Below are positions 57,101-60,634 of a stretch of 64,000 nucleotides of DNA, piece after piece (position 1 is the first letter of the stretch; each line of letters opens with the position of its first letter). The stretch comes from Candidatus Omnitrophota bacterium (lineage in GTDB: Bacteria > Omnitrophota > Gorgyraeia > Zapsychrales > Fredricksoniimonadaceae): the NCBI GenBank assembly GCA_044225175.1, contig JBGAJA010000001.1, forward strand, positions 422,711-486,710, read 5' to 3'. A program made the position numbers and the translations under genes. The notes under the pieces are model-generated. The model made no database searches and had not been told where the DNA came from. It saw nothing but the letters and a program-made list of their open reading frames with translations.

Positions 57101-60100
57101 GTTTACAATTCGGCCCTTTGGTTAGTGAGTGCCCCTAAACATACTTTTATCAAAGATTCTCAGGACAAAATTGTGGCGCAAAATTGGTTTTATTATGATG
57201 GTGCAGCATCCTTGGATGCAGCTCCTCTCAGCGGAAAATTAACTAAAAAAGTTGATTGGCAGGGGATTATAGGGATGTCGGATCCTCAGACGAGTTTTAC
57301 CTATGATGGGTATGGAAATGTGTTGACTATTACGGATCCAAATGGAAATGTCAGTAAGATTAGCTATGACTCCACGTATCACTTATTCCCGTTAGTGACG
57401 ACTAATGCCTTAAATCAGAGTGAAACTGTGTCCTATTACGGGGTCGATGGAAAGCTTTTGGATGAAGGTACAGGTTTACGAGGGCGTTGGGGCCAGAAAC
57501 GTTCTGTAACTGATGTTAATAATAAGACAGGTTATATCATTTATGATTTATTTGGACGAATGACGAGTTCTGTGTCACCAATTGACAGTGTGGCTTTACC
57601 CACCATTCAAAAAGTATACGAAATTTTTCCTAGCTATGTTTCTGTTCTTATTAAATCCCGTATAGAAAGCGATCAACCTCAAACGAGAGATGCTATTGAA
57701 TTTTATGATGGTTTAGGACGCTTGATTCAAACCAAAACACCCGGCCCCAATCTGGGACAATTTATAGTGCAGGGCTTGGTGGAATACGATGCAAGAGGTT
57801 TGGTGGTGAAGAATTACCAGCCCAGATTTACCAATCAACAGTTGAATATTATGGATGGCATTGATCTTCAAACGCCCTTTTCACAGATTGGTTACGATGC
57901 TTTAGGGCGGGCTATTCGTATGACGAATAGTGATGGCAGTTATGCTAGCGTGAGCTTTGAACCGTGGATGGCCAGGATGGTAGATGAGAATGGCCATATG
58001 CAAAAGTCTTACATGGATGCTTCTGGCCGATTGGTCAAAAAGGAAGAGTATACGGGGGCAGATGGCCGTTCCTCTGATTATGCAAAGACGAGCTATTATA
58101 CCCTTTATGCCACAACCAGATATACCTATGATGCGGTGGGTAATTTAATTACTGTAACCGATGCGCATAATAATGTGACGAAGATCAATTATGACGCTTT
58201 GGGTCGTAAGATCGGTATGAATGACCCTGATATGGGAAGATGGGAATATGAATATGATTTAAATGGAAATCTTACCACGCAGCGAAACGCAATTAATCAA
58301 AAGAGGAAGTTTAGTTATGATGCGCTAAATCGTTTGTATTTAAAAACATTTGTCCAATCCAAATCATCTTTGTCCTTTGTGAATTATACCTTTGACAAGA
58401 AGGATGATGCTAATGGTTTGGGTCATTTAAATGCTGTTACATACGGCAACGATTCATCTTTATTTAAATATGATGAGCTAGGACGCGAAACAAAGGCTGT
58501 TAAAACCATCAATCAATCTAACTTTAATGTTAGCCGTAACTATGATGCTTTAAATCGTATTAAAGAGTTAGAGTATCCCGATGGGAGCAAAATACGCAAT
58601 GTGTACAATCAGGCAGGGCAGATTATATCTATAGAAGATGAAAAAACAGGCTTTAAGTATATCAATTTCATTACTTATAACGCTTTAGGACAAATGACCC
58701 AGGTCGATTATGGCAATGGTGCTGTAACAAAGTATATTTACCATCCTTTAACTCGTAGACCCTCGCAAATACTTACCGTGAAGGGTTCTCAAAAATTTCA
58801 AGATTTAAATTACACTTATGATGCGGCTGGACAGATCAAAACAATCAAAGACCTGATTAATACCTCTTCCCAGACCTTTTTTTATGATGAACTCAATCGT
58901 CTAGTCAAGGCTGTTGGTGCTTATGAAACCAAGACTTATGCTTATGACAAAATAGGGAATATTCTTTTAAAAGACGGCATAAGCTATAGCTACGGTTTAA
59001 ACGCTGGACCGCACGCGGTGACCTCGACCAGCGATGGGACGACTTATGCTTATAACCCTAATGGCAATATGGTTTCCAAGAAAACGACCAAAGGCTTTTG
59101 GAGCTATGTTTATGATGTCCAAGACCGTCTTATGGTTGTTGCCTATGAGCCTATAGGTAAGGAGCGCAAGAAAATTTCCGAGTATTACTATGATGGCGAT
59201 GGAGGGCGCACGCGCAAGGTGGTGTATCGCTATATCGATCCCGCTTACCGTAATGAGAATACCTATAGCCTGGTGTTGAGCCAGTTAGGTACTCTTTATT
59301 TTGGAAGTAATGATTTTATCAAGCAAGAGACAATCTATATAGGCAATCACTATGAACTTGAAGATGCGGTTGTTCAGGGTGAAGTTCAGCGAAAAACAAA
59401 GAATATTTTTCTTGGAAATAATCGTGTGGCATCTGTCACTGGGGATGAAGTTGCATTTTACCACATGAACCATTTAGGCTCAGCGAATGTGATTACGGAT
59501 AAAGAAGGTAAGCTTCGTTCACTTACTGAGTATGATCCTTTCGGCCAGATTAGCCGCTTTGAGCGCTATGGGGCTAAGATAAAGACAGGTTGGGAGTATT
59601 TTAATGACAAGCCTCTGGATGATGAGACTGGGCTTATTTTCTATGGTGCACGTTACTATGATCCCAAGTTAGGAAGGTTTATATCAGCAGACACCATTGT
59701 CCAGTCGCATGAAAATCCCCAGACTTTGAATAGATATACCTATTGCAATAATAATCCTGTCAATAACATTGATCCTAGCGGGCACAGCTGGTTTAAGAAA
59801 TTTTTTAAGAAAGTACTTACGATTGGAATTGGTATTTATTTAGGGATAGCAACATCAGGTATTGGGATGCCTTTTTTTACTGGATTATTTGGTAATTCCG
59901 TTGCTGCTGGAATCGCAAGCGCGGCGACATCGGGAGCTATCGCGGGAGCTGTGTCTGGTGCTGTAGGAGCAAGTTTAACTGGTCAGGATGTGTTTAAATC
60001 GGCGCTAGTAGGGGCTGGTTTTGGAGCGCTGAGCGCAGGCATTTTTAAAGGTATTAATAGCATTGGTGGAGATGGATGGTCTTGGGGTGTAGGGCTTGGA

Positions 60101-60634
60101 AGAGTCGCTTTGTCAAGTCTTGCTGGAGGAGGTATCTCTAAATTAGCGGGAGGATCATTTAATAAAGGCGCTCTATTTTCTGGAATTATTTCTGGTGCTG
60201 ATTTTATCTATAGAGCAATTGTGAGTACTCAACCACAAGGAGATAATGTAGGCTCTTCGATGAGAACAGCTGAAGAAAATGCCAGGCCAAAAATGCGGCC
60301 AGATGGATCAGCTGTAACCCTACTCTGGGACAGAAATGTCAGTAATGTTGGAATGGCTTCAATTCCAGGGGATACGAGTTGGGGGAATTTCTTATTTGGC
60401 GAAACGGGTCCTGTTTTGAACTTTATAGGGAAAAATATCCCTGGTACCCAAGGTTTAAGTCTTGTTCATGATATTGCTTGCGAATATTTTGTTAATACTT
60501 TCGGGCAGACTTTTGATAGTTTATTTCTAAATATTGAAACAATGCCGCCATTTTATGGATTAAATTTAGTGGGGTCAGCTATTAATGATAGTCCTGGCAT
60601 GATTGGTTTTTATCAAAAGTTCTATGGCCCTTAA
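54155..60634 (+). CDS. Giant secreted SpvB/TcB-like + beta-propeller + RHS protein, paralog 3 (most divergent; different signal peptide and longer N-terminal linker), distinct C-terminal domain
   Basis: RBS AGGAGAT; SpvB signature SFSYPIVLPPGRGGMQPELALSYSST...GVGWSIELGAIQLSTKRGVPRYDG; blades DLNGDGYADL etc; core DPSGHSWFKK; 2159 aa. Confidence 0.85.
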   Translation: MKRVCFCFIFFVILSIVSTSYGAPRPSEMVEPRTTPKANSEISSKSKRSSITWHPQIFKDTKSITTVETSVVNIIPAKPTEPSPTLKFQEQQTPESPGNKDNKQIKSVAVEGKSSLASPESLQEIARTPPPGASRSGGDKSGISQMVSSSAVQVNQFVGSASFSYPIVLPPGRGGMQPELALSYSSTNRQYGIAGVGWSIELGAIQLSTKRGVPRYDGTDVVTIIMGDSSQELLYDAVAGFYRAEIEGDFIRVKKFTDYWEATDKKGTKYYYGSSKSTRQYDSDNNSHIFHWALEKIEDLNGNYMTFDYLKDGGYLYPEYIYYTKHNKLDKSSFVEVRFYYENTYGRARSYISGFRVRQEKRLKSIVSKVGVNWQTYYKFKYITSQSSKRDLLQSIERFSPDGLQSLPATTFSYNDSQQVKFQMDPAFSISNLPDMTLHNGHWADLGVRVGDLNGDGYADLVRYSAPIDGTTSNQAFINTKQKSWELSGDWKLSMSVIPNMPEGFVAYSSDLDKYTGVNFMDVDGDGISDTLQNFKRDVYWGGGGYYLKSAGINDGKKTFNQDPSWILPNEAILYYETGQTDNPKTFFGSTFFEDVNGDGLPDAMIVRNDPYANKLVYLNNKGTDPRARGWSYTNRWIIPSMEGDFSQGSGMVDLNGDGLSDIVHIVPGDVWIKINNGHGWETDTYGTWKSNMPSNADLRNGSTFFSDVNGDGLNDLIVGNTVHYNTGHSFFNAGISLPSSVDFTDHSTVLMDADGDGMMDLFKSVESQARELYINQAEPADLLVGINNGMGARSNIAYEASTHFSNTLLPYAFPVVKSITVTVDNPIGTAFSYVTSYEYAGGKWEGAYREFLGFQTVKSVDSIGNYVKSTFLQDHWLKGRLVSEEHYDASGHLYAKTVNQWMTQTLAQTDLSYQTSKFVYLSRSDNFIYEKTGTPKRAAQSFIYNENPQYGNITQAINWGEVDFTTGADIAQDKVSSFSEYVYNSALWLVSAPKHTFIKDSQDKIVAQNWFYYDGAASLDAAPLSGKLTKKVDWQGIIGMSDPQTSFTYDGYGNVLTITDPNGNVSKISYDSTYHLFPLVTTNALNQSETVSYYGVDGKLLDEGTGLRGRWGQKRSVTDVNNKTGYIIYDLFGRMTSSVSPIDSVALPTIQKVYEIFPSYVSVLIKSRIESDQPQTRDAIEFYDGLGRLIQTKTPGPNLGQFIVQGLVEYDARGLVVKNYQPRFTNQQLNIMDGIDLQTPFSQIGYDALGRAIRMTNSDGSYASVSFEPWMARMVDENGHMQKSYMDASGRLVKKEEYTGADGRSSDYAKTSYYTLYATTRYTYDAVGNLITVTDAHNNVTKINYDALGRKIGMNDPDMGRWEYEYDLNGNLTTQRNAINQKRKFSYDALNRLYLKTFVQSKSSLSFVNYTFDKKDDANGLGHLNAVTYGNDSSLFKYDELGRETKAVKTINQSNFNVSRNYDALNRIKELEYPDGSKIRNVYNQAGQIISIEDEKTGFKYINFITYNALGQMTQVDYGNGAVTKYIYHPLTRRPSQILTVKGSQKFQDLNYTYDAAGQIKTIKDLINTSSQTFFYDELNRLVKAVGAYETKTYAYDKIGNILLKDGISYSYGLNAGPHAVTSTSDGTTYAYNPNGNMVSKKTTKGFWSYVYDVQDRLMVVAYEPIGKERKKISEYYYDGDGGRTRKVVYRYIDPAYRNENTYSLVLSQLGTLYFGSNDFIKQETIYIGNHYELEDAVVQGEVQRKTKNIFLGNNRVASVTGDEVAFYHMNHLGSANVITDKEGKLRSLTEYDPFGQISRFERYGAKIKTGWEYFNDKPLDDETGLIFYGARYYDPKLGRFISADTIVQSHENPQTLNRYTYCNNNPVNNIDPSGHSWFKKFFKKVLTIGIGIYLGIATSGIGMPFFTGLFGNSVAAGIASAATSGAIAGAVSGAVGASLTGQDVFKSALVGAGFGALSAGIFKGINSIGGDGWSWGVGLGRVALSSLAGGGISKLAGGSFNKGALFSGIISGADFIYRAIVSTQPQGDNVGSSMRTAEENARPKMRPDGSAVTLLWDRNVSNVGMASIPGDTSWGNFLFGETGPVLNFIGKNIPGTQGLSLVHDIACEYFVNTFGQTFDSLFLNIETMPPFYGLNLVGSAINDSPGMIGFYQKFYGP

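Follow-up and report, generated by a model that had tools for sequence, protein, structure and literature searches.

Among the described systems with which the locus studied here can be compared, the TcB-TcC cocoons of toxin complexes (Tc) provide the closest solved structures: an SpvB domain, a beta-propeller, a TcdB_midN domain, an RHS shell and an Rhs core stand, in this order, before a hypervariable cargo of 201-400 aa, a PxxxxDxxG self-cleavage motif with His among its known P-1 residues has been described, and Tc loci are without immunity genes (PMC7861908). Tse5 (PA2684) of Pseudomonas aeruginosa also combines an Rhs cocoon and an aspartyl self-cleavage plug with a hydrophobic, membrane-inserting C-terminal fragment (PMC10684867, PMC9637101); its shell chaperones an integral-membrane pore toxin, which acts on the inner membrane and is delivered preferentially from the periplasmic side (PMC10684867). 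BiTLP, a teneurin-like YD-shell protein with a signal peptide, has a hydrophobic C-terminal domain (CTD) that is toxic only when directed to the periplasm, the cells becoming permeable to propidium iodide, and nearly all teneurin-like toxin genes have an immunity gene downstream (PMC13018210). Glycine zippers mediate membrane permeabilisation in Tde1 (PMC10240207) and in the depolarising toxin EsxX (PMC12744356), and runs of small-xxx-small motifs in hydrophobic helices are found also in other depolarising toxins (Tse4, PMC12169545; Ssp6, TspA and CdzC/D, PMC5380434) and in the ionophore toxins of contact-dependent growth inhibition (CDI; PMC11630599). Here we analyse p3, the third of four tandem Rhs-type paralogs (p1 to p4) in a 64,000-nucleotide stretch, hereafter the window, of a Candidatus Omnitrophota genome (assembly GCA_044225175.1, contig JBGAJA010000001.1, positions 422,711 to 486,710 of the forward strand). 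Our reading, to which we give a probability of roughly 60%, is that the C-terminal tail (CT) of p3 is a detachable two-part toxin, packaged in the cocoon and self-cleaved, which would insert into the target membrane from the periplasmic side.

A Tc-type carrier with a glycine-zipper cargo

The p3 carrier has the complete cocoon domain set, in the order known from TcB-TcC (Table 1). The core model TIGR03696 matches at aa 1793-1877 over its full length (1-76/76) with 76.7 bits, for a cutoff of 32.5, and the best solved relatives in a search of the PDB are TcdB2-TccC3 (E 2e-32) and YenB/YenC2, followed by Rhs effectors of type VI secretion systems (T6SS). It differs from TcB-TcC in being one fused polypeptide with a Sec signal and without a TcA gene nearby, and in that its cargo is a glycine-zipper membrane protein, not a soluble enzyme, and has relatives with immunity-like partners. 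The N-termini of p1, p2 and p4 are likewise hydrophobic and equivalent to the p3 signal, all four being predicted Sec signals. Tse5, in contrast, is T6SS-borne, has a PAAR-like N-terminus and is devoid of SpvB domain, propeller and signal peptide; its cargo is of 16 kDa, compared with about 28 kDa in p3, and no sequence similarity between the two cargoes was found in a profile search of the PDB, which includes Tse5; as a further difference, Tsi5 is a membrane protein and not a lipoprotein. Teneurin-like proteins have N-terminal FN-plug and TTR domains, with no mention of SpvB or FG-GAP in their description (PMC13018210), whereas p3 has SpvB, FG-GAP and TcdB_midN; furthermore, the CTD of BiTLP is of about 90 aa with one predicted transmembrane (TM) segment. 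Solved teneurin-like structures match the Rhs core of p3 only, and weakly (E 2e-6). The teneurin superfold also has an NHL propeller. As for the glycine-zipper and CDI toxins, they share with p3 the polymorphic-toxin context and a two-part organisation, but there is no detectable homology, they are delivered by type VII, type VI or type I secretion systems or by CdiA, and in the p3 family the zippers are followed by a polar loop that is itself conserved, and by a helical domain whose E/H-D/Y residues are invariant.

The cargo begins exactly at the core/CT junction. The sequence DPSGHSWFKK starts at aa 1873 (nt 59771), and the alignment with TccC3 places '...GRFISAD...NNPVNNIDPSGH' of p3 over '...GRWLSSD...NNPVTLLDPDGL', both catalytic Asp being kept (GRFISAD, IDPSG). 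The cut site in this PxxxxDxxG motif lies after the residue that follows the Gly, and cleavage after His1877 is thus predicted from the sequence, leaving a cargo of 277 aa. Nucleotide identity among p1, p2 and p3 is 78-83% in the 60 nt before the junction and about 35% from 60 nt past it, a collapse at the motif that looks like a typical Rhs core/CT boundary. At the protein level, the bodies of these three complete paralogs are 41-62% identical and their tails are unrelated; the original prediction, made from the DNA of the window, rightly saw in the p3 tail a third distinct payload on a paralogous carrier.

That prediction had further described the tail as about 150 aa of Gly/Ala/Ser-rich hydrophobic repeats after DPSGHSWFKK, followed by a payload of about 130 aa. 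The extents are right, with about 145 hydrophobic residues and then a polar helical tail of about 130 aa. CT aa 11-155 are 48% Gly+Ala+Ser and 22% Gly, their mean Kyte-Doolittle (KD) hydropathy is +0.82, and KD19 reaches values of at least 1.0 over CT aa 8-153; CT aa 156-287 are polar to neutral, with 14% charged residues and a mean KD of -0.12. Motifs of the small-xxx-small-xxx-small type occur at 18.6 per 100 aa in CT 11-155 as against 1.3 per 100 aa in the p3 body, which is far above what composition alone yields. There are, however, no repeat units: TRF detects no tandem repetition over the Gly-rich part, and what remains is a period of 12 nt (4 residues), that of a glycine zipper. Nor is the proposed split a domain boundary, since homology within the tail family described below reaches back to about CT aa 82, inside the Gly-rich region, and since the Gly module is found before other tails as well, which is at odds with a layout of repeats plus payload. 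The architecture is instead that of an Rhs core, variable TM helices (CT 11-80, for which there are two alternative sequence types among the relatives), a conserved Gly module, and a family-specific loop and helical domain. Family-averaged hydropathy is 1.2-1.8 in the variable helices; it is strong over CT 10-70, moderate up to 147, hydrophilic over 150-205 and near neutral thereafter, which agrees with the structural model described below. Invariant residues are A167 and G194 in the loop, and in the helical domain E211 (60401-60403), H233-D234 (60467-60472) and Y262 (60554-60556).

A tail family with exported partners

The tail had also been called unique. This holds within the window, where pairwise comparison of CT aa 156-287 with the tails of p1 and p2 gave no similarity, but not in nature, the family of the tail comprising at least 29 clusters. 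When 1.84 billion cluster representatives were searched exhaustively by phmmer with the p3 tail, 29 of them matched, 20 with E <1e-10. A word-index homology search with the tail alone gave no match; because the exhaustive search recovered the family, this reflects a limit of sensitivity and not absence. Moreover, the 90% cluster that contains p3 has a 47-aa ENA fragment as its representative, so that searches based on representatives cannot show p3 itself. The match always lies at the extreme C-terminus, either of giant carriers (2193, 2457 and 3042 aa), whose SpvB/FG-GAP/TcdB_midN/RHS layout is that of p3, or of short proteins of 240-310 aa, which are orphan cassettes. Scans of genomes and metagenomes (alignment A2) gave 16 further loci, two of them in metagenome-assembled genomes (MAGs) of Candidatus Omnitrophota and several from groundwater. 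Identities of the p3 tail with its relatives range from 34 to 55%, none of them being close, and the most similar CT (55-56%) is that of an Omnitrophota MAG (L006; JADFXQ01, 3697-3833 and flanks). In alignment A1, which holds 18 sequences 30-56% identical to p3, the invariant columns are A118, G119, G128, G133, Y147, A167, G194, E211, H233, D234, Y262 and G279; p3 keeps 12 out of 12 and, because every invariant residue is kept, this copy is probably functional. From these comparisons the p3 tail appears to represent a rare and undescribed cargo family. Two eukaryote-like repeat proteins, P0024 and P0029, matched at E 1e-8 and 1e-4 through 4-6 weak repeated stretches and are probably repeat-inflated false positives.

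Short family members often keep the end of the Rhs core, lie downstream of a main Rhs gene and adjoin tyrosine integrases or a Y1 transposase, an arrangement that suggests recombinase-assisted exchange of CT cassettes. Integrase- or Y1 transposase-like genes were seen directly 5′ of orphan CT + partner cassettes in L001 (918-2015), L003 (3665-5065), L004 (2420-3811) and L010 (4600-5208). The Gly-rich part is a shared, exchangeable module in its own right. The module of p2 (CT aa 15-159, window 53214-53648) shares 42% identity (E 1.5e-20) with an orphan cassette of L001 (4863-5711), an unrelated metagenome contig; this cassette has an unrelated tail and is followed by a 293-aa ORF. A match of the module with different tails implies that there are separate families of Gly modules, which recombine with tails. 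Similarly, only CT aa 55-145 of the p3 family match P0041 by hhalign (91%), the tail of the latter being different, and the family HMM matches the CT of the main Rhs gene of L010 (59-3997, C-terminus) at 6e-17 via the Gly module. This CT of L010 belongs to a second CT family ('WAGPHDWLNGW'), present also in L004 (5-1093), P0040 and P0041. The motif of the second family, 'xWAG(A/P)HD(F/W)LNxW', stands behind the same kind of Gly module, and in L004 a 185-aa lipoprotein follows. In P0038 (430 aa), an Rhs C-terminus and a glycine-zipper module precede a tail resembling Lipase_3 or alpha-beta-hydrolases (sub-threshold Pfam matches).

What lies downstream of the tail was recorded for the 17 relatives with enough sequence 3′ of the CT. 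A same-strand ORF follows directly in 16 of them, starting -49 to +91 nt from the stop, and each of the 16 ORFs, which fall into four unrelated families (Table 1), begins with a signal peptide or a lipobox; this points to neutralisation outside the cytoplasm. In the Omnitrophota MAG locus L005 (JACQXK01), the partner is a TPR-like gene at 9521-10174. In the remaining case, L006, convergent genes come next, namely a 180-aa ORF and an ExeA-like AAA ATPase, the latter judged from the sequence by eye. Beyond the 17, one more JGI contig has a 249-aa gene 12 nt 3′ of the CT. Orphan cassettes together with exported partners would be the signature of a polymorphic toxin whose cognate immunity acts outside the cytoplasm, and we infer that the exported neighbours of the relatives are immunity proteins intercepting the toxin there.

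At p3 the situation is different. As the original prediction had stated, no immunity-sized ORF follows the gene, the gap (67 nt, not 68 bp as first given) leading straight to p4. From 59771 to p4, the + strand ORFs of at least 25 aa are, besides p3, three out-of-frame snippets of 27-34 aa, and the only ORF of at least 50 aa is an antisense 69-aa TTG ORF (60575-60784) overlapping both p3 and p4. A small overlapping immunity-like gene, mentioned at the outset as an observation that would speak against an immunity-less payload, was not found near the 3′ end of p3. Searches of the six-frame translated window with HMMs and tblastn of the four partner families gave best E values of 0.05-0.11, i.e. 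noise. The 3′ flanks of p1 and p2 are gaps only, of 173 and 149 nt. With no immunity gene found in 64 kb for p1, p2 or p3, the probable targets of the array are other species, be they prey, hosts or competitors, unless the immunity genes are encoded elsewhere. The absence of an immunity gene is an exception for the p3 tail family and not a property of it. A toxin of polymorphic-toxin type that lacks an immunity gene typically belongs to a conflict between species or between predator and prey (PMC12419801). The p3 locus thus joins a Tc-type carrier, a cargo family normally partnered with immunity, and zero immunity genes for at least three tandem paralogs.

Pore or enzyme

Structure prediction and remote-homology searches, which had been proposed as a check, yielded the relatives described above and a moderate AlphaFold2 (AF2) model, but no known fold or family. 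The CT has no match in Pfam or NCBIfam, and its profile searches of the PDB gave only noise (SlyB, E 0.12; Hsp83, E 0.06); nor does the tail match a housekeeping domain in any of the three, an outcome that the original prediction had named as telling against a payload. AF2 with the single sequence gave no usable model (predicted local distance difference test, pLDDT, 38). With the family alignment it reached a pLDDT of 68.7 and a predicted template modelling score (pTM) of 0.67, the model consisting of six helices of 20-29 residues (CT 6-151), a non-helical loop (152-203) and five shorter helices (204-273). Foldseek found no match at E <=1e-3 in the PDB and BFVD; membrane proteins, Tim22/Tim23 among them, and phage tape-measure proteins account for almost all of its weak matches. 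Pfam models of glycine zippers have sub-threshold matches in 7 of 18 relatives and none on p3.

We propose, by analogy with Tse5, for which this has been shown, that the Rhs shell would package a cargo too hydrophobic to travel alone and keep it soluble. Self-cleavage would be followed by release at the target cell, whose cytoplasmic membrane the glycine-zipper helices would enter from the periplasm. Damage could then result from ion leakage and depolarisation, or from a reaction at the membrane surface involving the E/H-D/Y site of the tail; depolarisation seems slightly more likely. Several points weigh against this reading. The invariant E/H-D/Y residues fit an enzyme better than a pore, and no characterised pore former or enzyme is homologous to the CT. 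Confidence in the model is moderate, and its comparison covered the PDB and BFVD. Conclusions on the locus cover the 64-kb window, beyond which an unlinked immunity gene or TcA gene is possible, and our proposal offers no route by which a Sec-exported cocoon would cross the outer membrane of the producer to reach its target. Finally, immunity to pore formers more often comes from integral membrane proteins, and it is periplasmic enzymes that typically have soluble periplasmic proteins or lipoproteins as partners.

The main rival explanation, which we consider possible though not probable, is that the zipper helices merely anchor an enzyme to the membrane surface, where E211, H233-D234 and Y262 would act on its periplasmic face to cleave either a lipid or a cell-wall precursor linked to one, so that the tail would be akin to Tle lipases or TelC and not a pore. 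The polar residues are indeed invariant in a family that is only 30-56% identical, the tail is insufficiently hydrophobic for membrane spanning, and the same Gly module precedes the Lipase_3-like tail of P0038. The partners of the relatives are soluble secreted proteins or lipoproteins, including those resembling tetratricopeptide repeat (TPR) proteins, and soluble or lipoprotein partners are the known pattern for periplasmic enzyme effectors. TipC and lipoprotein immunity have been discussed in this connection (PMC12419801). On the other hand, the CT matches no hydrolase family in Pfam, NCBIfam or the PDB, and two specific candidates found no support. One was phospholipase A2 (PLA2), which has a His-Asp dyad in a small helical domain: hhalign of alignment A2 against a Streptomyces PLA2 gave a probability of 0.8%, which is a weak test, and no PLA2 stood among the PDB profile or Foldseek matches of the CT. 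The other was the Lipocone superfamily, with its four-helix core and conserved His (H2), Glu (H3) and Asp (H4) (PMC12419801). This idea is unsupported, because the order of E211 and then H233-D234 does not fit H, E, D and there is no Pfam match, the comparison having been made with the published description only.

Other explanations fare less well. It is unlikely that the Gly module serves as an entry domain, permeabilising the inner membrane for a tail that acts in the target cytoplasm, as with the zipper of Tde1 and the entry domains of CdiA-CT. Module and tails do recombine independently, like the entry and toxin domains of CdiA-CT (PMC11630599), and the Tde1 zipper is needed for translocation (PMC10240207), but the partners are exported in 16/16 cases and toxins acting in the cytoplasm normally have cytoplasmic immunity. 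A classical anti-eukaryotic Tc cargo, injected via an unlinked TcA, would explain the missing immunity gene and agree with the nearest solved structures, with a cargo length inside the range typical of TcC hypervariable regions and with the immunity-less Tc loci (PMC7861908). We nevertheless find it distinctly improbable: there is no TcA-sized gene in 40 kb upstream, the four paralogs have predicted Sec signals, unlike canonical TcB, the relatives have immunity-like partners and orphan cassette arrays, a hallmark of interbacterial polymorphic toxins, and passage of so hydrophobic a cargo through the TcA channel is without known precedent. That the helices are no toxin at all and form the membrane anchor or assembly element of a surface-displayed Rhs adhesin, or a decaying remnant, is hardly credible despite the lack of an immunity gene at p3 and of a recognised toxin domain, as they lie past the self-cleavage motif and would be encapsulated, all 12 invariant columns are intact, and the family occurs as orphan CT + partner cassettes beside recombinases.

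The p3 locus links Tc-type cocoons, thought to be anti-eukaryotic and immunity-less, with interbacterial polymorphic toxins that have immunity genes. It also points to a reusable membrane-insertion module, which could account for the transport of very hydrophobic toxins in Rhs shells and for their delivery without a dedicated translocator. The undescribed cargo family offers mutational targets (E211, H233-D234, Y262 and the glycine zippers) and supplies at least four unrelated candidate immunity families. Should the host prove to be an Omnitrophota-like predator or parasite, its array of four genes without immunity would be a candidate arsenal for killing prey. Practical value is modest, as this is one more toxin family in a well-known framework where new polymorphic-toxin tips are common; what stands out is the pairing of a Tc-type carrier with an interbacterial-type cargo, the sharing of the glycine-zipper module and the lack of immunity genes in the array. 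At this stage we may only speculate further. In a broader scenario, which we regard as doubtful, the Sec-exported cocoons of uncultured groundwater lineages (Omnitrophota and relatives) would constitute a TcA-independent antibacterial delivery system with a self-inserting glycine-zipper module and interchangeable tails, the p3 tail would represent a novel fold of enzymes working at the membrane interface, with E/H-D/Y as its active site, and immunity-less arrays would be predatory or interspecies weapons and not means of kin discrimination.

Genomic setting of the array

Table 1. Features of the p3 gene and its array, with positions in the window, and families of genes found downstream of related tails, with the contigs that carry them
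Feature	Position or contigs	Strand	Remarks
p1	40786-47259	+	Tandem Rhs-type paralog
p2	47433-54005	+	Tandem Rhs-type paralog
p3	54155-60634	+	2159-aa TcB-TcC-fusion-like Rhs carrier including C-terminal payload
Predicted Sec signal peptide of p3	54155-54220	+	MKRVCFCFIFFVILSIVSTSYG|AP; read by eye from sequence
SpvB / TcB N-terminal domain	54626-55201	+	PF03534, 84.6 bits, aa 158-349
FG-GAP beta-propeller blades, best-scoring part	55937-56326	+	PF13517 and PF01839
TcdB middle/N-terminal domain (TcdB_toxin_midN)	56366-56788	+	PF12256, 66.6 bits, aa 738-878
RHS/YD-repeat shell	57668-59530	+	PF05593, 115 bits; TIGR01643, 94.6 bits; aligns to PDB Rhs shells
Rhs-associated core (aspartyl autoprotease plug)	59531-59785	+	TIGR03696; ends PVNNIDPSGH
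DPSGH junction	59771-59785	+	Predicted self-cleavage after His1877; motif identical in p1-p3
Variable, strongly hydrophobic Gly-zipper helices	59801-60010	+	CT aa 11-80; predicted helices 6-27, 33-40, 42-70
Conserved Gly-rich module	60014-60211	+	CT aa 82-147; GALSAG...RVALSSLAGGGISKLAGGSF...GADFIY; kept across family
Polar loop	60224-60379	+	CT aa 152-203; conserved SM(K/R)TA and SNVG; hydropathy -0.5 to -1.5; non-helical in model
Helical tail domain	60380-60631	+	CT aa 204-287; invariant E211, H233-D234, Y262; pLDDT 80-88 over aa 200-240
Gap p3 to p4	60635-60701		67 nt; no ORF, no terminator-like site
p4	60702-64000	+	Paralog; ATG at 60702; runs past window end
TPR-like partners	L001, L003, L005, L011, L012, L014, L018, L019, L020, L022, L023		n=11; about 200 aa; pairwise E 1e-13 to 1e-126
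Second partner family	L004, L015		n=2
Third partner family	L013, L017		n=2
Fourth partner family	L010		n=1
No same-strand downstream gene	L006 (Omnitrophota MAG)		n=1

The Rhs paralogs are the only ORFs of more than 900 aa in the window, p4 being 40% identical to p3 at the protein level, and no TcA-sized gene was found in the approximately 40 kb of it that lie upstream of the array. The genes there are housekeeping ones (haem synthesis, P-type ATPase, ATP synthase, IF-2 and others). Between atpC and p1 lies a 134-aa ORF (40291-40695, +) with a signal peptide, several Cys and no Pfam match, likewise called in Logan contig L007. This ORF may have an accessory role in the Rhs array. Pilus or secretion machinery is encoded in this part of the chromosome too, by genes for a type IV pilin-like protein (33275-33724, +; N_methyl motif, GFTLLE) and a T2SSE-family ATPase (9091-10362, +). 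A 539-aa ORF without Pfam match (18546-20165, +) stands among the housekeeping genes. All 37 ORFs of at least 150 aa in the window share the + strand, and 62 of its 64 1-kb segments have a positive GC skew, which is consistent with a single replichore with a strong gene-strand bias. The sequence of the window, part of an 820-kb NCBI contig, occurs also in Logan run SRR28480385.

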